Shown here one piece after another: positions 46,768-64,000 of a stretch of 64,000 nucleotides of DNA (its first letter is position 1; each line of letters begins with the position of its first letter). Both the position numbers and the translations under genes were made by a program. The DNA comes from a virus: the IMG/VR virus record IMGVR_UViG_3300045988_092366; one strand, given 5' to 3'. Below the pieces are notes generated by a model. It had not been told where the DNA came from. It searched no databases and worked only from the letters and a program-made list of their open reading frames with translations.

Positions 46768-46772
46768 ATAAA

Positions 46773-47078: not shown

Positions 47079-47081
47079 ATT

Positions 47082-47527: not shown

Positions 47528-47852
47528 TTATACAATCGTTAGCCTATATTGCCATGAGTGCGATAATGATTCATGCCCATTGTGCCGCATAGGTGAATAT
47601 GTTCCAGAAGAATCTAGGCAAGGATGCACTAGAAAATTAGACAATGATACATATGCTGAATATGAGCATATAAATAATGAGATTCTACCCTTTCTTTCTT
47701 TTGGTATGTACAAAAATGAGACTGAAAGGGTAGACGAATTTTTAAAATATGTCTATAAAAGATGTCCTATCGGTACAGTTTTAGATGAAAAAGGCAAGGC
47801 CATCGGCACTAAAAAGAAAATAATTGACAAATGCAACTCTGAAATGATATAA
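47520..47852 (+). CDS. Zn-ribbon protein (CHECDNDSCPLC)
   Basis: ORF with a CxxC...CxxC motif. Confidence 0.5.
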   Translation: MDDYTIVSLYCHECDNDSCPLCRIGEYVPEESRQGCTRKLDNDTYAEYEHINNEILPFLSFGMYKNETERVDEFLKYVYKRCPIGTVLDEKGKAIGTKKKIIDKCNSEMI

Positions 47853-47879
47853 TATAGTGGAACGAAGAAAGGAAACTAT

Positions 47880-48668
47880 ATGAATAAATCAGAGATGTTT
47901 AATTTTCTTGACAATAGGTTTCGTAATTGTAATCCTGAGTTCTTAAAATTGTCTCAGGTATATTTTGAAGATGCCGTTGAAGATACTTTTTATAATTTTA
48001 TTAAGCAAATTGGCAATACTATTGGTGCTGATTGGGTTAATGGTGGTTGTTCTAAATCTGTATTTCATTTTAAAGAGTTTAACAACTATGTGTTTAAGAT
48101 TCCTTATATTGGATTTTTTCATATTGAGGATGAAGATAATCAATATTTTAAAGACTGTGCTGAGCAAGAGCGTGTGCCTACGTATTTCTGCTTTGATGAT
48201 GTAGTCCTTTATAAAAATGCAAATAATGATGGTGCATATCCAGTAGATGCAAATGACTATTGTGCGGTTGAAGAATATATTTATCGTATTGCCCGCAAGT
48301 ATAATGTTAATCAGATGTTTACTAAGACTGCTTTTTTAGGTTTTATATGCGGCGTTCCGGTGTATGTTTCTTCTTGCGCTGGGAAAACATATAGTCGTAA
48401 AAAGAGCAATTGCCGCAAGACGGATAAAATTGCAAAGGCAATGATTGATAAAAGCTGCAAAGAGCACAAAGATAGCTATAGTGAATTTTATACTACAGAG
48501 TGTGGCGTTTTCATTGAAACGTATGGTCGCAGGGCAACTCAACGCTTTATTGATTTTCTTTATAAAGAAAAGATTTCAGACTTGCATACTGGCAACTATG
48601 GTTATGATGCTCTTGGCAATTTGAAAATCATTGACTACTCTGGTTTCCATGACCTAGATGTTTTCTAA
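47880..48668 (+). CDS. Putative atypical (ePK-like) protein kinase
   Basis: Gly-rich loop GGCSKSVFHF; VFKIP (VAIK-like Lys); HTGNYGYDALGN (catalytic-loop-like); KIIDYSGF (DFG-like). Confidence 0.35.
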   Translation: MNKSEMFNFLDNRFRNCNPEFLKLSQVYFEDAVEDTFYNFIKQIGNTIGADWVNGGCSKSVFHFKEFNNYVFKIPYIGFFHIEDEDNQYFKDCAEQERVPTYFCFDDVVLYKNANNDGAYPVDANDYCAVEEYIYRIARKYNVNQMFTKTAFLGFICGVPVYVSSCAGKTYSRKKSNCRKTDKIAKAMIDKSCKEHKDSYSEFYTTECGVFIETYGRRATQRFIDFLYKEKISDLHTGNYGYDALGNLKIIDYSGFHDLDVF

Positions 48669-48676
48669 AATTTTAC

Positions 48677-48706
48677 TTGACAAGTCATATAAACAGATGT
48701 TATAAT
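48677..48706 (+). promoter_or_regulatory. Promoter TTGACA-18-tgtTATAAT; leader TTCCAAGAGAAAGTGA
   Basis: acTTGACAagtcatataaacagatgtTATAATatagg. Confidence 0.65.
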
Positions 48707-48743
48707 ATAGGAAAGTTTTCCTTCCAAGAGAAAGTGATAAAAT

Positions 48744-50204
48744 ATGTCTAAGTTTAATGAAAAGGTTAAGCCCGAGCGTTCTATGTCATACGAGGGCGGC
48801 GAGAATTACAAGAAGGATGTACTTGAGGATTGGATGAATTTCCTGTTCTCTAGCAAGATGGACGATGGTTTCTACGAGAATGCCGACACGCAGCAGACTC
48901 GTTTCATCGAACTTACGAATCTTGTAATTGATAAGTATGGCGCTGAGTTCGCTGGTAAGTGTGCCATGTTTGCACGAAACCAACTTGGTATGCGTAGTGT
49001 CTCGCAGCTTGTTGCGGCTATGCTGAATGGTCAGAGCTTTGAGCGCAAGCGCGATTTCTATAAGGCTTTCTGTCATCGTCCTGATGATATGTCTGAGATT
49101 TTCGCAGCTGTTGACATGCTTGGTGGCAAGCGTTCTCATTCTATGATTCGTGGTTTTGCAGATTATATGTCTGGTCTTTCTGAGTACAATCTTATGAAGT
49201 ATCAGATGAAGGGCAAGCGCTATAACATGTATGACCTTATCAATATCATTCATCCCAAGAGTGGCATTGTTGATGGTTACATGAATGGTAAGCTAGAAGC
49301 TGCTGATACTTGGGAAGTCAATATCTCCACTGGCAAGGATAGTTGGAAGAATATGGTTGAGGGTAATCGTCTCGGTTATCTCGCTCTTATCCGTAATCTC
49401 AACAACATTCTCGCAGAGGACGTTGACGATGAATGGATTAAGCGTAATCTTGTAGACCAGCTTATTAACGAGGTTTCTATCAAGAAGTCTCTTGTATTTC
49501 CTTATCAGATTTATATCGCTTATCGTAATTTAAATGTTCAGAATTTTGCGGTCATCACTGCACTTGATACTGCTTTCCGCATTGCTTGCGGAAACATGCC
49601 AAAGTTGGAAGGTAATTCTGTTATCATGCTTGATGTCTCCGGTTCGATGGAAGACCGCTATGGTAATAAGTCCAATCTCACCATCAAGGAAGTTGGCGCT
49701 TGCTATGCTGCGGCTCTTTACATTAACGGTAATTGCGACTTTGTAAAGTTCGGCAATCGTGCTAAGTCTGCAACTTTCAAGAAGGCTTGCGGCCCATTCC
49801 AAGTAATTCGTGAAATGTGTGAGAACGATAATTGCGGTTATGGAACTGACATTGCTCCTGCTTTCGGTCTTATCAGTGACAAGAAATACGACCGCATCTT
49901 CGTTGTCTCTGATATGCAGGTGATGGCAAGACAGTATACTTATTGGGGAGATAGCACTGACGGTATGTGCAACTATAATAATTATTGTGCTGTACATGGC
50001 CGCACAATTCTTTATAGTTTCGACCTCGGCAACTATGCTGACCAAATTGCTAATCCAGGTAATCCTGACGTCCACCTCATGACAGCTCTGAACGATAACG
50101 TCTTCAAGATGCTTGAATACGTAGAGAATGGCGGCAAGCTGTACGACTACATCAATGATAACTACCATTTCTACGCCAACGATAACGATAACTACCTCTT
50201 CTAA
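48744..50204 (+). CDS. Ro60/TROVE-domain protein with C-terminal vWA domain (Rsr-like)
   Basis: C-terminal MIDAS motif VIMLDVSGSMEDRYG and FVVSDMQ; N-terminal 300 aa have TROVE-like length and composition. Architecture matches bacterial Rsr. Confidence 0.65.
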   Translation: MSKFNEKVKPERSMSYEGGENYKKDVLEDWMNFLFSSKMDDGFYENADTQQTRFIELTNLVIDKYGAEFAGKCAMFARNQLGMRSVSQLVAAMLNGQSFERKRDFYKAFCHRPDDMSEIFAAVDMLGGKRSHSMIRGFADYMSGLSEYNLMKYQMKGKRYNMYDLINIIHPKSGIVDGYMNGKLEAADTWEVNISTGKDSWKNMVEGNRLGYLALIRNLNNILAEDVDDEWIKRNLVDQLINEVSIKKSLVFPYQIYIAYRNLNVQNFAVITALDTAFRIACGNMPKLEGNSVIMLDVSGSMEDRYGNKSNLTIKEVGACYAAALYINGNCDFVKFGNRAKSATFKKACGPFQVIREMCENDNCGYGTDIAPAFGLISDKKYDRIFVVSDMQVMARQYTYWGDSTDGMCNYNNYCAVHGRTILYSFDLGNYADQIANPGNPDVHLMTALNDNVFKMLEYVENGGKLYDYINDNYHFYANDNDNYLF

Positions 50205-50220
50205 TTTTCTTTCTTTTGGT

Positions 50221-50248
50221 AAAGGCACCCTCATGGGTGCCTTTTTTG
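50221..50248 (+). terminator. Rho-independent terminator aaaggcaccctcatgggtgccttttttg
   Basis: 9-bp stem plus T6. Confidence 0.75.
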
Positions 50249-50249
50249 T

Positions 50250-50279
50250 ATTGACACTGGTAAATAAATCTGTTATAAT
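50250..50279 (+). promoter_or_regulatory. Promoter TTGACA-18-tgtTATAAT
   Basis: aTTGACActggtaaataaatctgtTATAATa. Confidence 0.65.
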
Positions 50280-50304
50280 ACATATATAGAGAAAGGAAAT
50301 AGAA

Positions 50305-51156
50305 ATGGCAGAAAATGTAAATAAAATTCAGAATAGGGTTGAAGAGCATCTTGGCGCTATTATTGCCACAGGCAAGTATTGGCAGTATCCATATCTTGTA
50401 TGCGCAGCCAATGGTTCCATGAATTATAATCTATGGGACGAAGAATCTGATGTTGATACCAAGTTGCTTATGATTCCAACAGCATATGATTTGTTCTTGG
50501 ATAAGAAGCATCTTAATAAAGTCGAGATTATGGACAATGACGAGCATTGTACAGTTAAAGATTTTCGAGACTATTTTAAGATTCTCCATAAGGCAAATAT
50601 TAACTTCTTGGAAATTCTTTGCACTGAGTATTATGTTGTTAATCCTAAGTATAAGATTTACTGGGAATATCTTCGTAAACATTGTGATGATATTGCCAAT
50701 CTTAATCCGCAGAAATTAATTTTTTCTTCTCTTGGAATGGCTATGGAAAAGGCAAAGAAGATTTGCCATGATTCTCCTGCAAACCATGAACTGATTGAAA
50801 AGTATGGGTATGTGGCGAAGGAATTGCAACATATCATGCGACTGTATCTGTTTGTCAAGCGTTATCTTATTGATGGAGCGTCATTCTCAGAAGCTATCTG
50901 GATTGATGAACGTAATTCTTTAGGTAAAGAGAACCTATATCGTGATGAAATGATGGCTATTAAACGTTATGGTATTATATATTCGTCAGAAGATGCAAAG
51001 GCAAAGGCAGAACACTATGTAATGAAAATGGACGAGCTTATTGAGAATAATTCTAAGTTTATTCCTGAGCCGTCTAAGGATGCGGTAGATGCACTTGAAT
51101 CAACTCAGTTTGCTATCATGAATTCTTATATGTCCGCAGCCTATAATAAACGATAA
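50305..51156 (+). CDS. Pol-beta-superfamily nucleotidyltransferase
   Basis: Gx9-13-D-x-D/E pattern in CAANGSMNYNLWDEESDVDTKLL; 283 aa. Confidence 0.5.
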   Translation: MAENVNKIQNRVEEHLGAIIATGKYWQYPYLVCAANGSMNYNLWDEESDVDTKLLMIPTAYDLFLDKKHLNKVEIMDNDEHCTVKDFRDYFKILHKANINFLEILCTEYYVVNPKYKIYWEYLRKHCDDIANLNPQKLIFSSLGMAMEKAKKICHDSPANHELIEKYGYVAKELQHIMRLYLFVKRYLIDGASFSEAIWIDERNSLGKENLYRDEMMAIKRYGIIYSSEDAKAKAEHYVMKMDELIENNSKFIPEPSKDAVDALESTQFAIMNSYMSAAYNKR

Positions 51157-51167
51157 GGAGAAAACAA

Positions 51168-51578
51168 ATGGCGCATTGTCAGCTTACAGATTGCTATTGG
51201 AATGAGGAAACTAAGGTAGCATCGGTTACTATTACTTCACAGTGGGGTAAATTCGTTGAATACGCTAAGCCGCATGATGAAGATATGGACGTTGCTAATA
51301 AGTGGATTGGTTGGAGCATTGCCGAATACAAGTGCCGCATGAAGCTACAGCAGAAGCGTGCGGCAGCTATGCGTGAACGTTATAATGGTCTTGTGGCTTA
51401 TGAGGACCAACTTTGGTATTCATTTAAGTACAATGATGCACTTCGCTATGCTAAAAAGGATTGGTATGATGCTCGTGACAAGTATCATGCTTTAAAGAAT
51501 AATTTCCGCACGTTCTGCAAAGACCAAGTGGAAAGCCGTAGAAAGTTCTTAGAGGACTTAGAGAAAAAGGGACTGTAG
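51168..51578 (+). CDS. Hypothetical protein (136 aa)
   Basis: ORF with GGAGAAAAC RBS. Confidence 0.5.
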   Translation: MAHCQLTDCYWNEETKVASVTITSQWGKFVEYAKPHDEDMDVANKWIGWSIAEYKCRMKLQQKRAAAMRERYNGLVAYEDQLWYSFKYNDALRYAKKDWYDARDKYHALKNNFRTFCKDQVESRRKFLEDLEKKGL

Positions 51579-51621
51579 TTTATGATGGGTGTCGATTGCT
51601 ATAATCGGCATCCATTTTTTG

Positions 51622-51651
51622 TTGACAACTGAAAATGAAAATGATATAATA
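51622..51651 (+). promoter_or_regulatory. Promoter TTGACA-18-TATAAT
   Basis: gTTGACAactgaaaatgaaaatgaTATAATatc. Confidence 0.65.
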
Positions 51652-51673
51652 TCTATAAAAGAAAGGAGGACTT

Positions 51674-52474
51674 TTGAGTAAAATTAAAACTGTAAAAGGT
51701 TCCTATATAGAAGATATTACAGGCCAAACTTTTAACAGACTAACAGTCATTGGATTAACTGATAAACAAAATAGTGATAATCGTTGGCTTTGGAAATGTC
51801 AATGCTCTTGTGAAAAACATAGTATTGTATATACTTCTATGCACCACCTTAAGTCTGGAAATACAAAATCTTGTGGATGTTTAAAATCTGAAAAGTGTGC
51901 CCAAAGAAATCATGACAATACTTTAGATTTAACAAATACAAAGATTGGTATGTTAACGCCAATTAAATTGCTTAAAACTCCAGATGGAGAACAAAAAAGA
52001 TGGCTATGTAAATGTGATTGTGGAAATTATGTTGAAGTTTTATTAGGAGAACTTCGTAGAGATAATTATGGCAATGATTCAAGACACTCACAGTTAAGTT
52101 GTGGATGTATGAAAAGGTCTGCTGGCGAAGAATTGATTATACAATATCTTGATAAACATAATATTAAATATGAACCAGAAAAATATTTTTCTGGTTGTAT
52201 TAATCCTAAAACAAACGGTCGTTTGCGTTTTGATTTTTATCTTCCAGATTATAATTTATGCATCGAATTTGATGGTGAACAACATTTTAAAACTGGTAAA
52301 TGGGCTTGGACAAAAGAAATTAAAGCGGAGGACATTCATTATAGAGATAATTTAAAAAATCAATTTTGTGAAGACAACAATATTAACCTATTAAGAATTC
52401 CATATACTGATTATGGCAAACTAAATAAAAATGATGATTATTTAATGAGGAAAATTAATGAAGCAACATCGTGA
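51674..52474 (+). CDS. Putative endonuclease: Cys-repeat Zn fingers plus C-terminal Vsr/DUF559-like PD-(D/E)XK domain (TTG start)
   Basis: CQCSCEKH...CGCLKSEKC and CKCDCGNY...LSCGC, then RLRFDFYLPDYNLCIEFDGEQHF. RBS GGAGGA lies 5 nt before the TTG. Sits upstream of the topoisomerase II genes. Confidence 0.5.
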   Translation: MSKIKTVKGSYIEDITGQTFNRLTVIGLTDKQNSDNRWLWKCQCSCEKHSIVYTSMHHLKSGNTKSCGCLKSEKCAQRNHDNTLDLTNTKIGMLTPIKLLKTPDGEQKRWLCKCDCGNYVEVLLGELRRDNYGNDSRHSQLSCGCMKRSAGEELIIQYLDKHNIKYEPEKYFSGCINPKTNGRLRFDFYLPDYNLCIEFDGEQHFKTGKWAWTKEIKAEDIHYRDNLKNQFCEDNNINLLRIPYTDYGKLNKNDDYLMRKINEATS

Positions 52475-54308
52475 AATTGAATCCTTATCTCCATTAGAGC
52501 ATGTAAGATTACGTAGTGATGTATATGCGGGAGACTGCTCTGATGCAACTCAATTGATTATTGAGATTTTAGGTAATTCTATTGATGAATATAATATTGG
52601 ATATGGCAAAGAAATTATCGTTAAAGTTGATAATATAAATCATATCTATTCAGTAGAAGATTACGGTCGAGGTTTCCCTGTCAATGAGCTTAGGGAAGAT
52701 GGTGAAACCACTCTTCAAGCTAGTTTTGACGTTCTAAATACCAGTGGTAAGTTTAGGAATGATGGCAGCTATGCTGGTGTAAGTCTTGGCAAAAATGGCC
52801 AGGGTGGTAAACTCACCAACTTTCTTTCACATTCTATGGAAGTATATAGTTGTCGCAATCATAATTATGAATTTGTTCAGTTCAAAGAGGGTGTTTTTCA
52901 AGAGAGAAAGTTAGGTAAAAGTACAAAAGAACATGGCACGACTGTTACTTTCAATCCTAGTGAAGAGTTTTTCGATTCTCCTGCTATCAATGAATCTAAA
53001 GTAAAACAGTTTTGCAATGAAATTACTTGTTTATGCCACGGTCTAATCATTGATTATAATGGTCAAAAGATTTTTCATGAAAATGGAATCGCAGATTTAT
53101 TGAGCAGTCAAGTTAAAGATAATATTGAGATTGTTTCAAATCGTTTCATTGAAGAGTTTACCTATGGTAAACAAGGCATGAGCGTTGGACTAACGTATAC
53201 TAGCTCTTCTTCTTCAAGTATTATTTCATACGTCAATTGCGGTTTAACTAGTGCTGGCCCACATATAGCTTCTATGAAGTCTACAATTACCCGTATTCTA
53301 AATAAGTGGGCTAAAGAGAATAATCTTCTGGGTGATAAAGATAAAAATCTAGATGGTGTTTCTTTACAAGAAGGTTTAATTTTAGTTTCTAATATTACTG
53401 CGGAGAATGTAAAATATGAAGCGCAAGTAAAAAGTACAGTTACTAAAATTGATACTGATTTCACTTCTATTTTTGGACAGCAGCTAGAAGTATGGCTAGA
53501 TAGCAACCCAGAAGATGCAAAGGCTATTCTTGAAAAGGCTATCCTTGCGCGAAAAGCAGCAGAAGCAGCTAAACGTGCGCGTGCGGCAGTTAAGAATAAT
53601 AAAAAGCGTGGTAATAAGGTTAAGATTCTTAATCCAGATAAGCTCAAAGATGCTGAATTCCTTGGCCAAGATTCTACTCTTCTCGTAGTAGAAGGACTGT
53701 CAGCTGGAGCTTCGATGTGTGTTGCACGTGAAATTGACAAATATGGAATTTTAATGCTGCGCGGCAAGCTAATCAACGCACTTGCAAATAAAGATGATAG
53801 ACTATTAAAGAACGAAGAGATTCAATTACTTTTTAAGGCACTTGGTATTAAACCACATGAAGATTATGAAGAGACAAATTTAAGATACGGCAGGATTGGC
53901 ATATGCGTTGACTCCGATAGTGACGGTTACCACATCGGATTGCTTATTGCATCAGCTCTAGAACACTTCTGTCCTAAGTTTATTCAAGAGAATAGACTAT
54001 GTTGGTTACGCTCACCTCTCTATATTGTCAAAGGTAAAGATAAGGAACAATATTACTTTACAGACCAAGAAATGGACGCAGCTAGACCAAACCTTCCAGC
54101 AGGAGTAGAGGTACAACGTTGTAAGGGACTCGGTTCGCTATCTGCAAGTCAAGCACGTAATTCTATGTTTGGCGCGAATCAGCATATGGATGTTCTTATT
54201 CCAACAGACAAAACAAAGAATAAACTTATAACTCTTATGGGTTCAAATGCAGATGGCCGCAAAGATTTTATTTTCAATAATATTGACTTTAGTGAGGTGA
54301 AAGAGTAA
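52458..54308 (+). CDS. Topoisomerase II ATPase/TOPRIM subunit (GyrB/ParE-like, T4 gp39-type)
   Basis: GHKL N-box EILGNSIDE, G1 box EDYGRGFPV, TOPRIM LLVVEGLSAGAS, MLRGKLINA. Confidence 0.8.
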   Translation: MKQHREIESLSPLEHVRLRSDVYAGDCSDATQLIIEILGNSIDEYNIGYGKEIIVKVDNINHIYSVEDYGRGFPVNELREDGETTLQASFDVLNTSGKFRNDGSYAGVSLGKNGQGGKLTNFLSHSMEVYSCRNHNYEFVQFKEGVFQERKLGKSTKEHGTTVTFNPSEEFFDSPAINESKVKQFCNEITCLCHGLIIDYNGQKIFHENGIADLLSSQVKDNIEIVSNRFIEEFTYGKQGMSVGLTYTSSSSSSIISYVNCGLTSAGPHIASMKSTITRILNKWAKENNLLGDKDKNLDGVSLQEGLILVSNITAENVKYEAQVKSTVTKIDTDFTSIFGQQLEVWLDSNPEDAKAILEKAILARKAAEAAKRARAAVKNNKKRGNKVKILNPDKLKDAEFLGQDSTLLVVEGLSAGASMCVAREIDKYGILMLRGKLINALANKDDRLLKNEEIQLLFKALGIKPHEDYEETNLRYGRIGICVDSDSDGYHIGLLIASALEHFCPKFIQENRLCWLRSPLYIVKGKDKEQYYFTDQEMDAARPNLPAGVEVQRCKGLGSLSASQARNSMFGANQHMDVLIPTDKTKNKLITLMGSNADGRKDFIFNNIDFSEVKE

Positions 54309-56402
54309 TTGGATTTTAAAGTAAGTTTAGACGATGTTATTGATAATAGCTTTGGACAATATGCAGGAGCAGTTATTCAATCACGTGCGCTAGTAGACGT
54401 TCGAGACTGCGTAAAGCCATCTACTAGACAAGTCCTGTACTGTATGTTCACAGACAAATTCACTCATGACAAGCCATTTAAAAAGACGCTGAAAGCAATA
54501 GGAAGTTGCATGAGACTCTATATTCACGGAGACGCATCTTGCGAAGGTATTGTAATGCGCAGTGGACAGCCTTTTTCCATGAGGTATCCATTGGTAGAAG
54601 TTGAAGGTTCATACGGGACTTTAACAGAAACAGGAAACTGGGCCGCACCACGATACACGGCATCACGTCTTTCTCCGCTGTCTGATTATCTTCTTAAAGA
54701 AACTGATAAATATACAGTAGATGAATGGGTAGATAATTATGACGATACTGAGAAGTATCCTAGAATTCTTTCTTCTCTTGGATTTTATAACATCGTCAAT
54801 GGCACAAGCGGAATTGCGTCTGGTCTTGCAAGCTCTGTTCCACAGTTCAATCTCAAAGAAGTAAATGCGGCAATGGTATATATGCTAGAACACAAGGATA
54901 CTACATTTGATGATATTCTATGTTATCCTGATTTTGCAACTGGCGGCACAATTCTCAATAAAGATGAAGTGCGTGAAAGCCTTAAAACTGGCAAAGGTAA
55001 AGGCTGTATTATTCGTGCAAAGCTAGAATATGATAAAAAAGATAATTGCATTATTGTTCGTGAACTTCCTTACAGCGTATATACTAATACAATTTGTAAT
55101 GAAATTGAAAAGATTACAAATGATGAAGAAACCAATCCCGGCATTATTAATCTAAATGACCTTACAGGTGAAGATGTTTGTATTAAGATTTATCTTTCTA
55201 GGTCTGCCAATCCAAAAGAAGTAGCAACTTATCTGTTTGAAAATACTTCTTTGCAGAAAACTTATGGTATTAATATGACTATGCTTGAGAACGGTCGTTA
55301 TCCTAAAGTCTTTGGTTGGCAAGAAGCATTGACAGCACACTTAAAACATGAAAAGCAAGTATATATCAATATGTATAATCATCAACTTGATGTTCTTAAT
55401 TACAAGTTGAAAATTACAAACGGTATCATTGCGGCAATTAATAAGATTGATGAAACAGTTGAGACAATTAAAAATTCTTCTTCAACCAAAGAAGCTAATG
55501 AAAAACTACAATCTTTTCTAAGCATTGATGAAAACCAAGCCAAAGCGATTCTAGAAATTAAACTTATTCGTCTTGCAAAATTAGAAGTAAACAAGCTACT
55601 TAAAGATAAAGAAAATCTTGAGTCTGAGATTGAACGAATTAGTTCTATTTTAAATTCAAATAAACTTCTAAAGCAAGAAATGATTAAACGTTTTAATGAA
55701 GTATCTGAAAAGTTTGGAGACGAGCGTCGCACTAAAGTAGTCCAAAAAGAAATTACAAAAACAAAAAAGGCAAGGTCTTCTGCGCCAAAAGAGAATAGGA
55801 ATTTTGTTATTGCATTTAATCCTCTTGGTTATCTGCAAAAAGTCTCACCTTCTAAGTACAAGAGTGATGGTAGCCTTGCATTCACTGTATCTGAGGATAG
55901 AAAAGTAGCTCTATTCTCGAACAAGGGGCGATTCTTTAGGATTGCTCTTTCAGATATTAAAGAATGCGGTTCAAAGGATAAGGGCACAGCTATCGGTGCA
56001 ATCATCAATCTTGATAATGACGAAAAGATTATCACAATTCATAATGATGTATTCGTAGATAAGCCTTATATGTTCTTTGTTACAGAAGACGGTAAGGTTA
56101 AGAAGTGTGAAGGTAAACAATTCGCTGGTGGCACTCGTAACGTTAAAGGTTCTGTAGCATTTAAGACCGACAGCAAAATTGTCAGCATCCAAGAGACAAA
56201 TGGATGTGTTGTAACATTAACATCAACCAAGAGACAAATTAGTTTCATGGCTGATAGTGTGCGGGCAAGCAGTATTCGTTCTGGCGGCATGTGCGGTATT
56301 AAGTTAGACGATGATGATAGAATTGTATCTATGACAATTACTGAACCGCAGAACTTTACAGGTAAAATTGCAAATAAGGGTGGACGAGGGGTTATTCTTT
56401 AG
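54309..56402 (+). CDS. Topoisomerase II DNA breakage-reunion subunit (GyrA/ParC-like, T4 gp52-type); TTG start
   Basis: QSRALVDVRDCVKPSTRQVLYCM and the active-site Tyr context NWAAPRYTASRLS. RBS GAGGTGA before the TTG, which directly follows the gyrB-like stop. Confidence 0.8.
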   Translation: MDFKVSLDDVIDNSFGQYAGAVIQSRALVDVRDCVKPSTRQVLYCMFTDKFTHDKPFKKTLKAIGSCMRLYIHGDASCEGIVMRSGQPFSMRYPLVEVEGSYGTLTETGNWAAPRYTASRLSPLSDYLLKETDKYTVDEWVDNYDDTEKYPRILSSLGFYNIVNGTSGIASGLASSVPQFNLKEVNAAMVYMLEHKDTTFDDILCYPDFATGGTILNKDEVRESLKTGKGKGCIIRAKLEYDKKDNCIIVRELPYSVYTNTICNEIEKITNDEETNPGIINLNDLTGEDVCIKIYLSRSANPKEVATYLFENTSLQKTYGINMTMLENGRYPKVFGWQEALTAHLKHEKQVYINMYNHQLDVLNYKLKITNGIIAAINKIDETVETIKNSSSTKEANEKLQSFLSIDENQAKAILEIKLIRLAKLEVNKLLKDKENLESEIERISSILNSNKLLKQEMIKRFNEVSEKFGDERRTKVVQKEITKTKKARSSAPKENRNFVIAFNPLGYLQKVSPSKYKSDGSLAFTVSEDRKVALFSNKGRFFRIALSDIKECGSKDKGTAIGAIINLDNDEKIITIHNDVFVDKPYMFFVTEDGKVKKCEGKQFAGGTRNVKGSVAFKTDSKIVSIQETNGCVVTLTSTKRQISFMADSVRASSIRSGGMCGIKLDDDDRIVSMTITEPQNFTGKIANKGGRGVIL

Positions 56403-56430
56403 TCTGCCCTTTTCTTTCTATTGGAGGAAT

Positions 56431-57465
56431 ATGTCTCTAAATATTTATTCGCCAATGTTGGTTGGCAAAGCTCCCAAAAATTACGAAGATATGCTTAAAA
56501 ATACACCAATCATCGGTACTATTAAGAAAGATGGATATTGGTCACAACTAGTTAAAGACGAGAATGAGGTTCATCTTTATAGTCGCACAGTCTCTAAAAA
56601 GACTGGCTATTATAGTGATAATATTGATAAAGTGCCGCATATTAAAGATTGGGCTATGAATGAGCTTCCTAATGGCACATGTATCATCGGTGAAGTTTAT
56701 TATCCTAATGGTACCTCTAAGAATGTAACATCAGTTTTAGGTGCTTTACCAGAGAAAGCAATTGAACGTCAGAAAGGCGAGTACGGCAAAATTCATTTTT
56801 ATATGCACGATATTCTTGCATATAACGGCGAAGATTATGTTATGAATAATATGACATATGATTATCGTTACAGTAATCTTTGTGAGCATATTGATATTGC
56901 TACTCCTTTAATTCCAGAACTTGAAGTAGCACGATGCTACGATAACGCTTATTTAGACCTAAATAAAGTCACAATTGATAAACTCGCCGCAGGCGAAGAG
57001 GGTATGGTATTTCGTGTCGAGAATGGTCTATATGCACCAGGCAAGCGACAGCCAAAAGTCATGTTCAAAATCAAGCAGGCTCAGAATGATATTGATTTTG
57101 TAATTACAGAAGTTCTGCCGCCAGAATATCTTTATACTGGTAAGGAATCTGAGACTTGGGGCTATAAAGATAAAGAAGGTAATCTAATTACAAAGGCCGC
57201 ATATTATGGTTGGGCTGGGGCTTTACGACTTGGCGCATATGATAATGCTGGAAACCTTGTGTCTGTTGGTCGTGTGTCTTCTGGTCTTACAGATAATCTT
57301 AAAGCTGACCTCGCAGCCAATCCTGATAAATATATTGGAACGGTTGTAGAGGTAAACTGCATGAGTCTAGATAAAGGAAATAAAACCATGAGACATTGTT
57401 ACCTATCTAGGCTTCGCGCGGACAAACCAGCACAGGACTGTAAGCTAGAAGAAATTTTTAGCTAA
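56431..57465 (+). CDS. ATP-dependent DNA ligase (T7-like)
   Basis: Start trimmed to MSLNIYSPML (RBS GGAGGA). Motif I IKKDGYW (KxDG); motif IV EGMVFRV; motif V KVMFKIK. Confidence 0.7.
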   Translation: MSLNIYSPMLVGKAPKNYEDMLKNTPIIGTIKKDGYWSQLVKDENEVHLYSRTVSKKTGYYSDNIDKVPHIKDWAMNELPNGTCIIGEVYYPNGTSKNVTSVLGALPEKAIERQKGEYGKIHFYMHDILAYNGEDYVMNNMTYDYRYSNLCEHIDIATPLIPELEVARCYDNAYLDLNKVTIDKLAAGEEGMVFRVENGLYAPGKRQPKVMFKIKQAQNDIDFVITEVLPPEYLYTGKESETWGYKDKEGNLITKAAYYGWAGALRLGAYDNAGNLVSVGRVSSGLTDNLKADLAANPDKYIGTVVEVNCMSLDKGNKTMRHCYLSRLRADKPAQDCKLEEIFS

Positions 57466-57468
57466 GGC

Positions 57469-57497
57469 TTGACTTCTAGAATATTTTATGTTATCAT
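57469..57497 (+). promoter_or_regulatory. Promoter TTGACT-17-TATCAT
   Basis: gcTTGACTtctagaatattttatgtTATCATgt. Confidence 0.5.
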
Positions 57498-57533
57498 GTA
57501 TATGAAATAAAAATGAAAAAGTAAAGGAGTTAT

Positions 57534-57806
57534 ATGATTACTATTACCAAGCCAGTATTTTCAGACAATGCTAAAAAGGTTCTAAAGCACCTACAGGAGA
57601 ATCAGGGCAAGGATGAAACTTTTAAGGACATTGCAAAGGCTGTTCATCTAACTGATAAGGCTACTAATTGCATTATCACCTCATCGCTTGTTCGCAAAGG
57701 CTATGCGGTTCGTGAGCTACAGCCTGATGGTGGCACTAACTTTATTCGCCTTACCGATGAAGGTATGAAAGTTGACCCTGAAATCACCGTAACATACACC
57801 AAGTAA
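57534..57806 (+). CDS. Small winged-HTH-like DNA-binding protein (90 aa)
   Basis: ORF with AAAGGAG RBS. Confidence 0.4.
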   Translation: MITITKPVFSDNAKKVLKHLQENQGKDETFKDIAKAVHLTDKATNCIITSSLVRKGYAVRELQPDGGTNFIRLTDEGMKVDPEITVTYTK

Positions 57807-57807
57807 T

Positions 57808-58692
57808 ATGGTTCTCGAATTTATTATAGCTGTTGTCTGTGCTATTACATTTATCGTATGCGGCTATAGTGTAGGCGTTATAGCTGGCAGAAAAGAAACA
57901 TGTGATATAGTCGAAGAGAACAACAAAGAAGTTCTTATTGCGCGAGAGCATATTGAATATCAAATTCAAAATGAAAAGGCACATTTAAAATCTCTCCAAG
58001 AGAATGTGGAACAGCAGAAGCAGAGTTTTGAAGACTTTAAAAAAGTTGAAAAAGAGAATATCATGAATAACCTTCGTGATTTTCAAGCTCAAGTTGACGA
58101 AGACAAAGCTGAATATATTGAGCAGATTCAAATTCTTCAAAGCTCACTTGACAAGCTACAGCGCCAAAAGGCTGCGACAATTGAAGCGTTTCAACGTGAA
58201 CAGGCGGTTCAAGATTCTAAAGATGATTATCGTATCATTATCGAAGATAGTGACAAAGCAGATATTGATATTCTAAATTCGTTTAAGAACCGCCTTTCTA
58301 ATCCAGAAATTCTTTCAAAGCTAATATGGTCAACGTACTTCCAGAAGAAAGCAAAGGCTTTATTCGTTAATATTGTTGGTACTGAAAAGACTTGCGGTAT
58401 TTATAAGATTACAGATATAAATGATACAAAGTGCTATATAGGTCAATCTGTAGATATTGCAAATCGTTTTACGCAGCATTGCCGTTGCGGATGCGGTATA
58501 AAAACTCCTAAAGATAATAAACTATATGCAGCGATGCTTAAAGAAGGTTTAGACCAATTCACATTTGAAATTGTAGAACTTTGTCCGCAAGAAGAATTAA
58601 ATGAAAAAGAAAAATATTATATTGATGTATATAATTCAGTTAATTATGGTTTTAATTCACAGGATGGTGTAAATGGGAAAAGTAACGATTAA
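57808..58692 (+). CDS. Membrane-anchored coiled-coil protein with C-terminal GIY-YIG nuclease domain
   Basis: N-terminal TM segment FIIAVVCAITFIVCGYSVGVIAG; about 160 aa of coiled-coil; then CGIYKITDINDTKCYIGQSVDIANRFTQH (GIY...YIG...R...H). Confidence 0.55.
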   Translation: MVLEFIIAVVCAITFIVCGYSVGVIAGRKETCDIVEENNKEVLIAREHIEYQIQNEKAHLKSLQENVEQQKQSFEDFKKVEKENIMNNLRDFQAQVDEDKAEYIEQIQILQSSLDKLQRQKAATIEAFQREQAVQDSKDDYRIIIEDSDKADIDILNSFKNRLSNPEILSKLIWSTYFQKKAKALFVNIVGTEKTCGIYKITDINDTKCYIGQSVDIANRFTQHCRCGCGIKTPKDNKLYAAMLKEGLDQFTFEIVELCPQEELNEKEKYYIDVYNSVNYGFNSQDGVNGKSND

Positions 58693-59353
58693 CAGTAATA
58701 CTGTTAAGAATCCTATTACGTTAATTGGCGAAATGGCTGGCCCTTGCTATGGCACAGATACCAGTAACGTAGAGAAGAATTATAAGCGCGGTCTTTCTTG
58801 TATTAAAGACGGGCATTTCCGCACACTTGAGTTTGGAGAAGTGTGGTTTGTTCTAGAGGGGTATTCAGCGAAGGTAATTCGAGAATTCTATACTCATAAT
58901 GGTGGAGCGCCTACACGTCTACAGGCAAGTACGCGTTATATTAAGTATCAAGATTTTGATTATGTAGTTCCTCCAAAAATCGCGGCAAATGAAGATGCGA
59001 AGCAAATGTACGATTCTTGTATGAAAGCTATTGCTGAAGCTACTACTTATATGCAAAAGGAATGTGGAATTCCGCAGGAAGATGCAAATATGGTTCTTCC
59101 TCTTGGAATGGCAACTACTGTCAGTTGTCGCTTCAATAGCCGCACACTTATGACTATGGCTGAACAACGTCTATGTACTCGTGCCTATTGGGAATTTAGG
59201 CAGCTAATGAAAGATATAATTGAAGCATTATCTAAGTATTCTGATGAATGGAAAACTATTTGTGATTTATTCTTTAAGTGTAAATGTGATAAAGCTGGTT
59301 ATTGTCTAGAGCATAAGTCATGTGGAAAATACCCCAAAAAAGTTATTGACTAA
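58673..59353 (+). CDS. ThyX-like protein with non-canonical RHR motif (THN)
   Basis: ThyX family blocks GEMAGPCYG, GHFRTLEF...FVLEGYSAKV...EFYTHNGGAPTRLQASTRY, versus canonical RHR...SQRY. Confidence 0.5.
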   Translation: MGKVTINSNTVKNPITLIGEMAGPCYGTDTSNVEKNYKRGLSCIKDGHFRTLEFGEVWFVLEGYSAKVIREFYTHNGGAPTRLQASTRYIKYQDFDYVVPPKIAANEDAKQMYDSCMKAIAEATTYMQKECGIPQEDANMVLPLGMATTVSCRFNSRTLMTMAEQRLCTRAYWEFRQLMKDIIEALSKYSDEWKTICDLFFKCKCDKAGYCLEHKSCGKYPKKVID

Positions 59354-59374
59354 GAATTAAAAATATGTTATAAT
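59346..59374 (+). promoter_or_regulatory. Promoter TTGACT-17-tgtTATAAT
   Basis: aTTGACTaagaattaaaaatatgtTATAATatg. Confidence 0.6.
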
Positions 59375-59415
59375 ATGTGATATAAGATTGAAAGAAAAAT
59401 TAGAAAGGAAAATGA

Positions 59416-60369
59416 ATGTTCCAGAAGACAAACAATTCATGCCATATCGAGGGATACGTATTTTCAACTGACCGCCTTGCACAGCGTGTCTCTAAAAAGA
59501 CAGGCACTCCATTTATTAACGGTACAGTGAACATTGCGACTGATGATAAGGGCCTTAACGTTGTTCCTGTATTTTTCCGTTATGTTACTGAGACTTTTAA
59601 GAGCGGCAAGCCTAATCCAGCATGGGAGATTCTAACTGCTCTTATCGACCATGAGGGTTCAGATACTTTTGAAGCTGTAGGTACTTCCGCTCTCAAGGTT
59701 CGTATTGACGGCTCTGTCGGCACAAATGATTTTGTATCTCGTGATGGTGAAGTTGTTTCTCCTAAGCGTGTCGAAGGTCAGTTTATGCACGTCATGACTA
59801 ATGAGATTTCTGAGAATCCCGCAACCTTTGATGTCGATATGCTGATTGCAAATGCGGCTGAGCAGGAAGTTGAAGAGGGCGATGATTTCGTCAAGCTACG
59901 CGGTTATGTCTTTGATTATCGTGGTGACGTTCTCCCCGTTGATGTTAATGTTCGTTCCAAGGGCGGTATGGACTACTTCATTGACCAAGATATTTCCAAT
60001 AAGAATCCTCTTCTAACTCATATTAAGGGTTCCATTGTATCTCAGGCTATTACGACTGAGAAGACTGAGGAATCTGCATTTGGCGACCCAGTAGTTCACA
60101 AGGTTGTTCGTCATGTTCGTTCTTGGGATGTTACTTGGGCTGCGGTCGAACCTTATGAGTGGGATGATGAATCTACTATCACTAAGAAGGAGTTCAAGCA
60201 GAAGCTAAACGAGCGTGAAGAGCGTATGGCAGAAGTTAAGCGTAATCATGACGAGTATCAGGCTAGTCGTAACGGTGGTCAGAACTTTGCGGCAGCAAAG
60301 GTAGTCGCAAAGGTTGAAGCCCCAGCGGATGAAAACGAAGATGATGATGACGATGATTGGCCCTTCTAG
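59416..60369 (+). CDS. ssb: Single-stranded DNA-binding protein (acidic C-terminal tail ...ENEDDDDDDWPF)
   Basis: 317 aa; tail resembles SSB/T7 gp2.5 acidic aromatic-terminated tails; strong terminator downstream. Confidence 0.5.
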   Translation: MFQKTNNSCHIEGYVFSTDRLAQRVSKKTGTPFINGTVNIATDDKGLNVVPVFFRYVTETFKSGKPNPAWEILTALIDHEGSDTFEAVGTSALKVRIDGSVGTNDFVSRDGEVVSPKRVEGQFMHVMTNEISENPATFDVDMLIANAAEQEVEEGDDFVKLRGYVFDYRGDVLPVDVNVRSKGGMDYFIDQDISNKNPLLTHIKGSIVSQAITTEKTEESAFGDPVVHKVVRHVRSWDVTWAAVEPYEWDDESTITKKEFKQKLNEREERMAEVKRNHDEYQASRNGGQNFAAAKVVAKVEAPADENEDDDDDDWPF

Positions 60370-60392
60370 TCAAGTATCAGACAATTAAATAG

Positions 60393-60424
60393 ATAGGGGA
60401 GAGATTAAGTCCTCTCCCCTATAA
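60393..60424 (+). terminator. Hairpin gataggggagagattaagtcctctcccctataag
   Basis: 11-bp stem. Confidence 0.7.
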
Positions 60425-60464
60425 GATAGAAAAGGATTTAAAATGGAATTTAATTTTACGCCAT

Positions 60465-60806
60465 GTGCGGTCCTGCTGCCAAGTGCTCGGAGTGCGCCGC
60501 AAGATAGCGAATAAGTTGCGTAAAGCCGGTGAATGGATGACTGAGAAATACATCGGAAAAGCCAGGCACTACAAGCACAACAACGACTTGTTCTGGAAAT
60601 ATAGAGACATCGTACTTGACGATAATGGCAATCCTGTTACGGACGATAACGGCAGACTTGTATGGCTACTGCTCAGATGGAAGGGTTGCGACAACGCTGC
60701 ATGGTGGACGAAAGGGTACAAGGATTGCAAGCTGTGCCGCGATGAAGGCAAGACGTACTGCATCGACTTTACCGACTGCAACGTCTACGAGGTCGTAAGC
60801 GAATGA
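60465..60806 (+). CDS. Hypothetical protein in the second GC-rich island (start ambiguous; alternative ATG at MTEKYIGK)
   Basis: ORF; local GC near 50%. Confidence 0.4.
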   Translation: MRSCCQVLGVRRKIANKLRKAGEWMTEKYIGKARHYKHNNDLFWKYRDIVLDDNGNPVTDDNGRLVWLLLRWKGCDNAAWWTKGYKDCKLCRDEGKTYCIDFTDCNVYEVVSE

Positions 60807-60831
60807 GCTGTGGAGCGAAGGCGGTAAGCAA

Positions 60832-61149
60832 ATGCTAACAGCGGATGAAGTCAAGTTCCTAAAGGAGCTTCAAGACAAATTGAATACGCAAGAGACGTTT
60901 TGTCAAGCGGACCCACGTTTCTGGGTAGTTGAGCAGGATCGCTGGTACACATGCCCAAAGGGCTACGAAGACCGCGTTGTTGTCGTAGACAACGAAGGGT
61001 GTGACACAATGACTCTTGGGCAGGGCGTGAAAGCAGCATTTTCTAGCATCCAAGCGAAGTTTAGCAGCGAGGACGCAACTGAGTGGCTAAGCAATTGGGG
61101 ACATAGCACTTGCCGCCGAGACAATGTTATTTATCTAAATCGTATTTAA
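60832..61149 (+). CDS. Hypothetical protein (105 aa), GC-rich island
   Basis: ORF. Confidence 0.45.
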   Translation: MLTADEVKFLKELQDKLNTQETFCQADPRFWVVEQDRWYTCPKGYEDRVVVVDNEGCDTMTLGQGVKAAFSSIQAKFSSEDATEWLSNWGHSTCRRDNVIYLNRI

Positions 61150-61197
61150 TAGTAGATAGCAAAAGATTAAACCAAGAGAGAAAAGAGAAAGCAATAT

Positions 61198-62214
61198 ATG
61201 TCAATTGATATTTTTAATATTGAACCTCACAAAGTTAGTCGTTCGCTAGAGGGCTATACAATCATGTTTTACGGTGAGCCTAAGACTGGAAAAACATCAA
61301 CAGCAGCCAAATTTCCAAAAGCCTTACTATTAGGTTTTGAGGTTGGCTATCTAGCAATTGGCGGCGTAAAACCGCAACCTATTAACAAATGGTCTGAATT
61401 TAAACAGGTTCTAAAGCAGCTAAAAGACCCGAAAGCTCATGAGCTATACAGCAATATTATTATTGATACTGCTGACATTGCTTATGACCTTTGTGAAAAG
61501 TACATCTGCAATCAGGCTGGAGTCTCGGCTGTGAATGAGCTACCTTATGGTCAGGGGTGGTCTAAAACTAGTAAAGAGTTCGATGAATGTCTTCGTTCCA
61601 TTCCTCAGATGGGCTATGGTCTAGTAATGATTTCACATAGTCAAGACAAGACTTTTACTGATGAAAATGGTAGTGAATATAACCAGATTGTTCCTACTCT
61701 TGGCAATCGTCCGCGTCTAATCGTTGACCGAATGAGTGACGTTATCGGTTACGCCCATCCAGTAGAAGAGGAAGATGGCCGCACTCATACTGTTCTGTAT
61801 ATGCGCGGAACCCCTCGATTCGTAGCTGGTTCTCGATTTAAGTATACGCCTGATTCTATTGACTTCACCTATGACAATCTTGTCAAGGCTATTGGTGATG
61901 CAATTGATAAGCAGGCAGAGGAAGATGCTGGAAAATTCGTGACTGATGCACGCACTACTGCTTATGACATTAATGATGGACCTGACTTTGAAGCTATGAA
62001 GAATGAGTTCAAAGAACTAACTGTCAAGATTCAACACAGTGTTTCTAAGGATGAATTCAAGAAGTCTTGGGCGCCTAAGATTATCGAAATTACAGATAAG
62101 TATCTCGGTGTCGGCAAGAAGGTCAATGACTGTACTGCTAAGCAAGCTGAACAGCTTTCACTTATCCTTGATGACCTTAAAGACTTACTGTCTAATGGAA
62201 TTGATGTAGCTTAA
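61198..62214 (+). CDS. RecA-fold P-loop ATPase (Sak4/AAA_24-like recombination protein)
   Basis: Walker A YGEPKTGKTS; Walker B-like IIIDTAD; 338 aa. Confidence 0.55.
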   Translation: MSIDIFNIEPHKVSRSLEGYTIMFYGEPKTGKTSTAAKFPKALLLGFEVGYLAIGGVKPQPINKWSEFKQVLKQLKDPKAHELYSNIIIDTADIAYDLCEKYICNQAGVSAVNELPYGQGWSKTSKEFDECLRSIPQMGYGLVMISHSQDKTFTDENGSEYNQIVPTLGNRPRLIVDRMSDVIGYAHPVEEEDGRTHTVLYMRGTPRFVAGSRFKYTPDSIDFTYDNLVKAIGDAIDKQAEEDAGKFVTDARTTAYDINDGPDFEAMKNEFKELTVKIQHSVSKDEFKKSWAPKIIEITDKYLGVGKKVNDCTAKQAEQLSLILDDLKDLLSNGIDVA

Positions 62215-62220
62215 TTCTAA

Positions 62221-62248
62221 AGACCGTCCATAATTGGGCGGTCTTTTT
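62221..62248 (+). terminator. Rho-independent terminator gaccgtccataattgggcggtctttttt
   Basis: Hairpin plus T6, followed by TTGACA-17-TATAAT. Confidence 0.75.
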
Positions 62249-62303
62249 TATTGACAAAATCTCCTGAATATGTTATAATTATATTATAAAGTTAGGAGAA
62301 AAT

Positions 62304-62822
62304 ATGGCAAAACAAAGACTTGTTAAATGTCCATATTGCGGCCAAATGATTGACCGTGATTGTGAGTTTGATTGGAACAAGATTGGCAACCGATATTGGC
62401 ATGATGAATGTTATACCAAAAGCCAAGAGGAAAAAGAAAAGAATAAAGATAAGCTGAAAAAGCAACGAGAAGCAGTTATGAAAATGGCTGGAAAATATCT
62501 TGGGGTATATATAGATTATCAAAAGGTAGCCTTAAATATGGGGCAACTTATTCAAGCTGGCGTTACATATGAGCAAATGGCTAAGTCTTTAAAATATTGG
62601 TATGAGGTAAAACATAACGACCCGAGTAGGTCGAATGGCGGTATATGGATTGTCAAATCAATTTATATCGAAGCGGAAAACTATTTCAAGCGATTGGAAG
62701 AGATTAGAACTGTACAGAGTGAAGAGCAAGTGAATACAGATATTACAGATGAACATCGTGTATTTGTGCGACCAAGAGACGTAAATATCTATAGAAAAAA
62801 GCCACGTTTCAATTTGGAATAG
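62304..62822 (+). CDS. Zn-ribbon protein (CPYCGQ...HDECY), 172 aa
   Basis: ORF with AGGAGAAAAT RBS. Confidence 0.5.
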   Translation: MAKQRLVKCPYCGQMIDRDCEFDWNKIGNRYWHDECYTKSQEEKEKNKDKLKKQREAVMKMAGKYLGVYIDYQKVALNMGQLIQAGVTYEQMAKSLKYWYEVKHNDPSRSNGGIWIVKSIYIEAENYFKRLEEIRTVQSEEQVNTDITDEHRVFVRPRDVNIYRKKPRFNLE

Positions 62823-62834
62823 AAGGGAGGATAT

Positions 62835-63542
62835 TTGATTAGTAAATACTATGATTCTGTCGCGGCATTACAGGTAATTGGATGTTGTATGCGGAAACCC
62901 GAATACTTAGCAGCAGATGGACAATACTTCTTTTCAGAACACGACTTTTGCAATGATTTACATAAGGTAGTATTTGGTGCGTTATATAGTCTATATAACG
63001 CAGGTGTAACCGACCATCTTGCGCGAGAAATTGAAAATTATCTTAAAGATAAGCCAAAAGCATATGCAGTTTATAAAGCCAATAAAGGTCGAGAGTGGAT
63101 GTTTGAAACTCATGCAAATGCCCACTTAGATGCTTTTGAGTATTATTATAATCGTCTAAAGAAAATGTCTCTACTTCGCGCATATGATGGTGTTGGCGTA
63201 GATGTATCTGATATTTATGACCCTGATAATATCTTAGATTCTGCAAAGAAGCAAGCGCAAGACGAGTACCTTGACGGCACGACATTGGAGCAATTAGCAG
63301 ATGATGTAGAAGGTAAATTTTATTTTATCAGGGATTTATATGTAGACAATAACGATAATGACTCTGTTGCTATTGGTGATAATGTCCAAAAGATTGTAGA
63401 TGAATTAGCACAGCATCCTGCTCGTGGTTGGGCAATGTATGATTTATATGAAGATGCAATCGCTATGGGCGCACGACCTGGCCGCTTTTATCTAAGAAGT
63501 GCAGCAACAGGTGTCGGTAGAATGATTTGCCGACAATAAACT
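62835..63542 (+). CDS. DnaB-like replicative helicase, N-terminal part, ending in a stop inside the Walker A region (TTG start)
   Basis: DnaB N-domain-like ALQVIGCCMRKPEYL...DFCNDLHKVVFGAL, then ...AIAMGARPG RFYLRSAATGVG RMICRQ*. RBS AAGGGAGGA. Confidence 0.55.
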
Positions 63543-63758
63543 GGGGAGAAAATCTGGAACCCTAAACCAAAAGGCAAGGGAATCAGAGGTGAAGGTTAAT
63601 TTTAAATTAATCAGCCGCAACGCATAGCAGGTGAAAAGATATAATCCTGCCACGAGGCCCCAGCTTTCTTTACAAGAAAGAAAAGATATGCTGAACTTGC
63701 GGGAAACTGTAAGAGCTGTAGGATAAAAAGCCTACAGGGTAACAAATTGAAATCAAGA
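63543..63758 (+). other. ORF-less, hairpin-rich intervening sequence splitting the helicase P-loop; candidate small self-splicing intron (boundaries approximate)
   Basis: Hairpins GCAGG-tgaaaagatataat-CCTGC, CTTTCTTT-acaag-AAAGAAAG and CTGTAGG-ataaaaagc-CCTACAG. The stretch aaaagatataatcc resembles the group I S element AAGATATAGTCC. No start codon in the downstream frame. Confidence 0.4.
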
Positions 63759-64000
63759 ACTGGTGTTGCCGATGCTTGCTTCTTTTCATGTTCTGAATAT
63801 TATTCAGATGAAGGTAAATGGGAGCGTTTATATAATCGAGTACCTACTTTATATATTTCGGTAGAATTAGACATTGAAGAGCTTACAACTATGGCGCTGG
63901 CTTTTATTGGTAATATTCCAGAAGACCATATCGTTGAAATGGATTTACTTACTTTTGACGAGGAAGAGAGATTAAAGAAAGCAGTACAGATTCTAGAAGA
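63759..64000 (+). CDS. DnaB-like helicase continuation (partial, runs off the right edge), in frame with no start codon
   Basis: KSRTGVADACFFSCSEYYSDEGKWERLYNRVPTLYISVELDIEELTTMALAFIGNIPEDHIVEM is comparable to DnaB KTAFALNIAENAA...LIFSLEMPSEQIMMRSLASLSRV. Confidence 0.5.

Follow-up and report, generated by a model that had tools for sequence, protein, structure and literature searches.

The last part of the 64,000-nucleotide (nt) stretch of viral DNA that we analyzed, IMG/VR record IMGVR_UViG_3300045988_092366 (hereafter called the window), carries the gene of a yorI-type, DnaB-like replicative helicase, the coding sequence of which is interrupted in its Walker A codons by a short candidate group I intron. 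All features of gene and insert lie on the plus strand. An open reading frame (ORF) starts with TTG at 62835 and ends with the TAA at 63537-63539, encoding 234 amino acids with the C-terminus ...AATGVGRMICRQ* (the end of this upstream product being ...LRSAATGVGRMICRQ). Its codons 1-228 (62835-63518), ending in ...AATGVG, constitute the 5' exon, as indicated by the ORF itself, by 99% identity to the helicase P0001 discussed below and by the gene order yorF-yorG-yorH-yorI, which is that of Bacillus phage SPbeta. The downstream frame, different from that of the upstream ORF, is open from 63645, lacks a Met and from 63750 onwards reads KSRTGVADACFFSCSEYY...ISVELDIEEL; here begins the 3' exon (KSRTGVADACFF...), which occupies 63750-64000, extends beyond the end of the window and reaches its stop in the Logan contig L010. 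A preliminary description of this DNA had reported the downstream frame to be open from 63645 without an ATG, which we confirm, and had placed the end of the upstream frame inside the insert, which is correct, except that the stop codon lies at 63537-63539 and not at 63542. It also gave the insert a length of about 220 bp; the insert is there, with an exact size of 231 nt (63519-63749).

When ...AATGVG and KSRTG... are joined, the resulting 311-residue query retrieves 2,729 homologues, nearly all with the PF03796 (DnaB_C) domain, and its junction aligns without gaps to these helicases, so that the restoration of a GxGKS P-loop anticipated in the preliminary description holds; in an alignment of nine sequences, G226, G228, K229 and R231 are invariant. 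The best homologue, P0001, is a protein of 520 amino acids which is 99% identical over 100% of the query and is encoded on the Logan contig L001, where the genes run YorF, AAA_24, YorH, helicase, Toprim primase and RecJ, the order of yorF-yorG-yorH-yorI-yorJ-yorK in SPbeta. The DNA alignment of the window with this intron-less allele contains a single clean insertion of 231 nt at 63519-63749, located in the Walker A motif, between GGT (Gly228) and AAA (Lys229). As A is the first base of the intron as well as of exon 2, the boundary of the insert could equally be set one base away, and its placement after U63518 with a terminal G63749 is the choice that fits group I rules. The predicted ligated junction of the window allele is ...GGUGUCGGU|AAAUCAAGA..., and the intron-less sequence at the insertion site is GTGGGCAAAAGC, as opposed to GTCGGTAAATCA. 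Over positions 60000-64000, contig L010 has the same sequence as the window, and it runs on beyond the end of the window; when 63519-63749 is removed from the L010 gene, 1563 nt remain, the same length as the intron-less gene, and the encoded protein differs from the intron-less one in 4 of 520 amino acids. The exact 234-residue truncated product was found on 7 Logan contigs, and the interruption is thus not a one-off assembly error.

The phage itself is a large SPbeta-like phage without a close deposited relative: megablast of window positions 44000-64000 against deposited phages gave no match, and a contig scan of the genomes with P0001 found no relative. The closest helicases of cultured relatives are 30-34% identical and all uninterrupted at this site, and no other helicase interrupted at the same site was found by tblastn against all the loci that were fetched.

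The ends of the insert are defined by pairings between intron and exons. In the P1 hairpin (63513-63534), the end of the 5' exon, GUCGGU (63513-63518), pairs with GCCGAC (63529-63534), with the wobble U63518·G63529 at the 5' splice site. The latter strand is the 3' half of the internal guide sequence UGAUUUGCCGAC (63523-63534), the 5' half of which, UGAUUU (63523-63528), forms the 6 bp of P10 with the start of exon 2, AAAUCA (63750-63755). The whole 12-nt guide is complementary to its own ligated junction GUCGGU|AAAUCA in 12 of 12 positions, whereas with the intron-less junction only 8 of 12 positions pair. The preliminary description had instead interpreted the TGV-coding nucleotides duplicated on both sides of the insert as the guide pairing, which is a coincidence arising from the presence of TGV twice in the protein. 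The last base of the intron is G63749 (omega G), which terminates a 3' tail, GGUAACAAAUUG (63738-63749), found to be conserved by comparison of relatives. In three other exon contexts (related inserts of 227-236 nt in L045, the L129 group and L036), the exon sequences differ but the guide again matches them, the U·G wobble is present and the last intron base is G, and the tails of the relatives that were aligned or analyzed are likewise readable as ending in G. The longest, and sole, sense ORF within the insert has 31 amino acids, and the insert thus has no endonuclease gene of its own, be it of the HNH, GIY-YIG or LAGLIDADG type.

The internal fold of the insert was evaluated by comparative analysis. 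Its fold is more stable than those of shuffled sequences (z = -4.2), in agreement with the hairpins and the structured RNA recognized in the preliminary description. In the alignment A2, formed by 18 full-length ORF-less sequences including that of the window, RNAalifold without guidance recovers P3, P4, P5, P6, P6a, P7.1, P8, P9 and P9.1, with compensatory changes in 43 of the 52 predicted pairs. The structure that was then tested had P7 added as a pseudoknot with P3 and the heterogeneous 5' hairpin dropped; standard pairs occupy 98.0% of its 930 cells, compared with 31-42% when the partners are slid by 1-3 columns. Double changes are present in 39 of its 52 pairs, and none of 500 shuffles attains the observed values, even if the counts of covariation do not represent independent events because the relatives are related to one another.

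Following the strand from its 5' end, P3 is formed by CUGGGG (63541-63546) and CCCCAG (63658-63663), with double compensatory changes in five of its six pairs. P4 (63554-63557 with 63583-63586) surrounds P5 (63560-63562 with 63578-63580) and a small P5a hairpin, J4/5 and J5/4 being AA each; P6 (63589-63590 with 63614-63615) and the P6a hairpin (63594-63600 with 63606-63612) follow, supported by alignment and covariation as are P8, P9 and P9.1. The 5' strand of P7, ACGCAUA (63620-63626), pairs with UAUGCU (63687-63692) in a pseudoknot with P3, all cells being paired. Within this helix C63621 is bulged and the adjacent G63622-C63691, the candidate guanosine-binding pair, is invariant in 18 of 18 and in 28 of 28 sequences, the pair flanking it alternates between A-U and G-C, and P7 covaries at two positions, with A-U and G-C alternating in all four combinations and every cell paired in the 28 further-aligned sequences. 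Early manual assignments of P7 to CCACGAG/CUUGCGG and to CAGC/GCUG gave way to ACGCAUA/UAUGCU when the covariation of the latter emerged from the alignments. Between P7 and P3' lies the hairpin P7.1 (63627-63650; GCAGG at 63627-63631 with CCUGC at 63646-63650), four of its five pairs having double changes. P8 (63664-63680), which has 7 bp in the window, is formed by CUUUCUU and AAGAAAG, and is followed by J8/7 (AAAAGA) and the 3' strand of P7 (UAUGCU), together covering 63681-63692. This segment is the near-match to the group I S element, AAGAUAUGCUG, of the preliminary description. P9 (63696-63713) has 7 bp and a GAAA tetraloop at 63703-63706, whereas P9.1 (63716-63737), also of 7 bp, has the loop AUAAAAAG; this loop and the closing G-C pairs are invariant by construction because both were in the search pattern.

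The window copy is a minimal form, which has no P2 and has short P5, P6a, P7.1, P8 and P9. The joiners J3/4, J4/5 and J5/4 are rich in A. Extra helices between P7 and P3' (P7.1/P7.2 or P7.1/P7.1a) are typical of subgroup IA; here one covarying hairpin (P7.1) is present at that place, where larger relatives have a nested second hairpin. Judged from its predicted pairings, the insert is built like a group I intron of IA type, considering the bulged P7 next to an invariant G-C, P7.1, the A-rich joiners and the GAAA loop of P9.

The insert belongs to a family that is widespread in phages. A pattern of 24 nt, taken from the tail and P9.1, has a single match in the window and is present in at least 120 IMG/VR loci; among the matches listed, 110 distinct 3' flanks correspond to many different host genes and 21 loci are full-length relatives without an ORF. 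In deposited phages, blastn of the region finds counterparts only of the 3' half of the insert, and the matching sequences are the 3' ends of endonuclease-bearing inserts that split other genes. A related insert with an HNH ORF splits the tape measure gene of Staphylococcus phage 6ec, and another, the ORF of which is annotated only as 'endonuclease', splits the DNA polymerase gene of Alicyclobacillus phage MMB025; further matches are found in Clostridioides, Clostridium and uncultured phages. The endonuclease ORF of such larger relatives is placed upstream of the 3' domain, with the loop of P6/P6a as its probable site. The deposited records under these matches contain split or 'hypothetical' coding sequences (CDS), or are unannotated, and an intron feature is present in none of those inspected; in 6ec, for instance, the tape measure gene is listed as separate CDS, and so is the DNA polymerase gene in MMB025. 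The preliminary description had considered an ORF-less insert of such a small size unusual, a view that is no longer tenable given that relatives of 227-236 nt recur in other phage genes and that the intron in the terL gene of phage 2972, which is of the same family, also is ORF-less.

The intron of several other members of the family lies in or beside Walker A codons, as in loci L035, L041, L044, L071, L106 and L009, where exon 2 begins with GGTAAAAC (GKT) or AAATCAAG (KS); therefore, the sequence coding for the P-loop looks like a recurrent target of this subfamily of introns. The intron of L106 additionally has, in the loop of P7.1, an extra insert of approximately 100 nt with a GGTTCGAGTCC motif that resembles the T-arm of tRNA, in which ARAGORN detected no tRNA.

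From these data, we are highly confident that 63519-63749 is an ORF-less, IA-like group I self-splicing intron, 231 nt long and lacking P2, in the mRNA of the yorI-type replicative helicase, as supported by the exact indel with respect to L001, by the covariation within the family and by the match to a covariance model of the family, R1, described below. The proposal of a small ORF-less intron in the Walker A codons, already contained in the preliminary description, is thereby sustained by the comparison with the intron-less allele, by P1, P10, the U·G wobble and the terminal G, and by the covariation-supported core. Splicing itself, which we infer, would begin with the pairing of the 5' exon end GUCGGU with the guide to form P1, in which the splice site is marked by the U·G wobble. 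The attack after U63518 would then come from an exogenous guanosine held by the P7 pair G63622-C63691; subsequently, the terminal G63749 would take the same site in P7, with P10 aligning the 3' exon. Ligation of the exons would produce GGU|AAA, restoring the Walker A sequence GVGKS and the helicase of 520 amino acids. The in-frame UAA (63537-63539), which follows the first 18 nt of the intron and is situated between P1 and P3, would presumably, judging from other phage group I introns, halt ribosomes ahead of the ribozyme core.

Several points weigh against this interpretation. Splicing of the window copy is deduced from sequence and predicted structure, and the relatives used for covariation were gathered by sequence pattern and nhmmer and are phylogenetically related. 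The second pair of P7 is C-G (C63623-G63690) here versus A-U in the td intron of phage T4, the P7 of which we take to be GACUA/UAGUC, as it is in phage 2972. Moreover, the Rfam model of group I introns, RF00028, does not match the insert at E <= 1 or E <= 10 (311-nt slice, 63480-63790), and Rfam scans of 63000-64000 and of the whole window gave no intron match, the weak matches to snoR16, C0465 and others being due to chance. An Rfam scan for introns of groups I and II, which the preliminary description had proposed as a check, is thus negative. The same model also fails to match eight related phage loci (L002-L009), so that nine loci are missed when the window is counted. We rejected the idea that RF00028 is generally insensitive to phage introns, since in a positive control it detects the bnrdE intron of SPbeta (92.4 bits), both halves of the bnrdF intron of SPbeta and the intron between orf3 and orf4 (terL) of phage 2972 (53.3 bits); the miss is therefore specific to this subfamily.

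To relate the family to recognized introns we used R1, a covariance model of its 3' domain with 132 positions and 30 pairs. On the window, R1 scores 133 bits over 63617-63750, with no second copy. The terL intron of phage 2972 and the bnrdE intron of SPbeta, both of which lie outside the set from which R1 was built, score 82.9 bits (E about 1e-16) and 27.5 bits (E about 1e-4), respectively, these E-values being rough because the calibration was shortened, a further reservation to be added to those above; the match in bnrdE ends where the frame of exon 2 opens. Since both introns are also positive with RF00028, the family is homologous to introns recognized by Rfam. The visible difference resides in P7, which is GCAUA/UAUGC or GCGUA/UACGC in the subfamily versus GACUA/UAGUC in the intron of phage 2972, and the Rfam-invisible variant, with C-G for A-U next to the guanosine-binding pair, is present in many of the IMG/VR loci retrieved, which number at least 120. 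The Rfam negative hence reflects a blind spot of RF00028 and is not evidence against an intron. Indeed, the incomplete coverage of phage group I introns by current models has been acknowledged (PMC11878797).

The same observations can be set against other explanations of the interrupted gene. The insert could be the decayed, splicing-dead relic of an intron and the helicase a pseudogene in this phage lineage, as might be suspected given that splicing is a prediction, that RF00028 is negative and that the intron-less allele appears to be more abundant (a cluster of 1,283 member sequences versus 7 contigs with the interruption). All core helices are, however, intact in the window copy, every position invariant in the family is kept and the guide matches its own exons 12/12. 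The exons, moreover, differ from those of the intron-less allele by 46 nt but by 4 amino acids, which denotes purifying selection, and no second helicase was noticed in the replication module. We consider a relic very unlikely because the helices are intact and the exons are under strong purifying selection.

Even less credible, to the point of being negligible, is that RNA splicing does not occur at all and the helicase is made as two polypeptides, or by ribosomes bypassing the insert as in gene 60 of phage T4. The gene caller did give a separate ORF of 293 amino acids, starting from a TTG that overlaps the last bases of the intron, but the gene is broken within the Walker A loop itself, with GVG on one side and KS on the other, and the 3' part has neither a Met nor independent support as a separate gene. 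Furthermore, the gap consists of 231 nt of conserved structured RNA of a group I family, whereas that bypassed in T4 gene 60 is about 50 nt long. We attach equally little weight to an artefact of assembly or sequencing, or to a mobile insertion other than a group I intron, such as a miniature inverted-repeat transposable element (MITE), a group II intron or an intein. The uncultured origin of the window and its lack of a close match in deposited phages would be compatible with an artefact, but the identical sequence recurs on 7 contigs; and the membership of the insert in a family with so many IMG/VR loci speaks against an insertion of different nature. For a group II intron, 231 nt is too small (six domains of about 600 nt or more, with domain V, would be expected), there is no Rfam group II match and there is no ORF. 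An intein is ruled out by the stops in the reading frames of the exons, the upstream frame stopping 18 nt into the insert and the downstream frame being closed until 63645.

Returning to the group I intron, the exons around it retain a trace that bears upon its origin. The window allele differs from the intron-less allele in 46 of 1563 exon positions, and 15 of these 46 differences fall within 60 exon nt around the junction, all of them synonymous, in codons 224-228 and 230-240; the whole tract of clustered synonymous differences (codons 224-228 and 230-244) flanks the intron within 63506-63797. The binomial probability of this clustering is about 1e-10, or about 2e-9 after correction for the choice of window, and precisely the exon bases that pair with the guide are among the recoded ones. 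The recoding can be read in two ways, either as co-conversion of the flanks when a diverged donor contributed the intron by homing or recombination of DNA, or as the outcome of selection for complementarity to the guide. Reverse splicing alone would leave the exons unrecoded (PMC2504315). The intron probably arrived by DNA-level homing or recombination from a diverged allele, with co-conversion of approximately 13 nt of the exon sequence upstream and 48 nt of that downstream. The recoded tract would then offer a clean natural example of co-conversion, or of co-adaptation between exon and guide, at a P-loop target.

Among described introns, that in terL of Streptococcus thermophilus phage 2972 has a 3' domain of the same architecture, made up of P7, P7.1, P3', P8, J8/7, a P9 that carries a GAAA loop, P9.1 and the tail GAUAACA, and likewise is ORF-less and lies between the halves of an essential phage gene (orf3/orf4). 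It differs in having the canonical P7 GACUA/UAGUC, in being detected by RF00028, in its host gene and in its greater length, with a larger 5' half. Its orf3 and orf4 are reported to give one protein via splicing (PMC3364186, citing Levesque 2005). The bnrdE intron of SPbeta (SPBc2) resides in a related phage with the same yorF-yorL gene order, also in a gene of DNA metabolism, and its 3' domain is matched weakly but specifically by R1. In contrast to the window intron, it has a strong match to RF00028 and its host gene is that of ribonucleotide reductase, while yorI of SPbeta is itself uninterrupted. We presume that the td intron of T4 and the orf142 intron of phage Twort also resemble the window intron. 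A parallel of another kind is provided by the P-loop inteins of DnaB and other proteins, which are selfish elements in the most conserved ATP-binding motif that are removed after transcription and leave the gene functional. These, however, are in-frame protein inserts eliminated by protein splicing, whereas the insert studied here contains stops in the exon frames and would be removed at the RNA level. The IA1 and IA2 introns in prophages of the Bacillus cereus group, located in tape measure and nrdE genes, have an extra helix between P7 and P3', are inserted after a U in the most conserved stretch of the gene and are in some cases ORF-less (PMC2504315; PMC11878797). They are likened to the window intron by description, and the window intron differs in having a single P7.1 hairpin and no P2. 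More generally, phage IA introns are common in genes of DNA metabolism and structural proteins (PMC2504315).

As to its consequences, the group I reading implies that the helicase should be annotated as one spliced gene of 520 amino acids, not as two fragments or a pseudogene. It does not change the understanding of group I introns, the element being of an ordinary phage kind; the most useful by-product is the recognition of an abundant subfamily that escapes RF00028, with members in phages of Staphylococcus, Clostridioides, Clostridium and Alicyclobacillus besides the IMG/VR loci, of which there are at least 120. Many split-gene annotations would be mended by a covariance model dedicated to it. 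Two more speculative ideas, which we regard as jointly unlikely, are that splicing acts as a gate on phage replication and, separately, that the P7 variant defines an unclassified IA-like subgroup. With a gate, unspliced mRNA would yield only the N-terminal (primase-interacting) fragment of 234 amino acids and spliced mRNA the full ATPase, and the efficiency of splicing, dependent on translation or on Mg2+ or GTP status, would set the ratio of inhibitory fragment to active helicase.

Nuclease-like genes occur elsewhere in the window and beyond its end. A free-standing ORF of 294 amino acids (57808-58692, plus strand) with a C-terminal GIY-YIG domain lies between the genes of an ATP-dependent ligase (56368-57465) and thyX (58673-59353) and could encode a candidate homing endonuclease acting in trans. 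Another ORF, of 266 amino acids (51674-52474, plus strand), is situated directly upstream of the gyrB-like gene, has a weak match to DUF5889 that is below the Pfam cut-off and is similar to ORFs directly upstream of the 3' domain of the intron in L007 and L008; it may be a further free-standing endonuclease. Nothing ties either of these ORFs to the intron site. In contig L010, which is of the same phage, the RecJ/DHH gene is cut to 371 amino acids versus more than 583 in L001; the similarity to L001 ends at about position 8399 of L010 and a GIY-YIG ORF begins at 8580. The region 8400-8705, approximately 3.5 kb past the end of the window, is probably a second insertion, two replication genes further on than the helicase; it would be either an intron that carries an endonuclease gene or an endonuclease gene standing free. 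Topoisomerase subunits of gyrB and gyrA type (52458-56402), the ligase and ThyX are likewise encoded in the window, which also carries six tRNA genes on the minus strand at 26714-33059.

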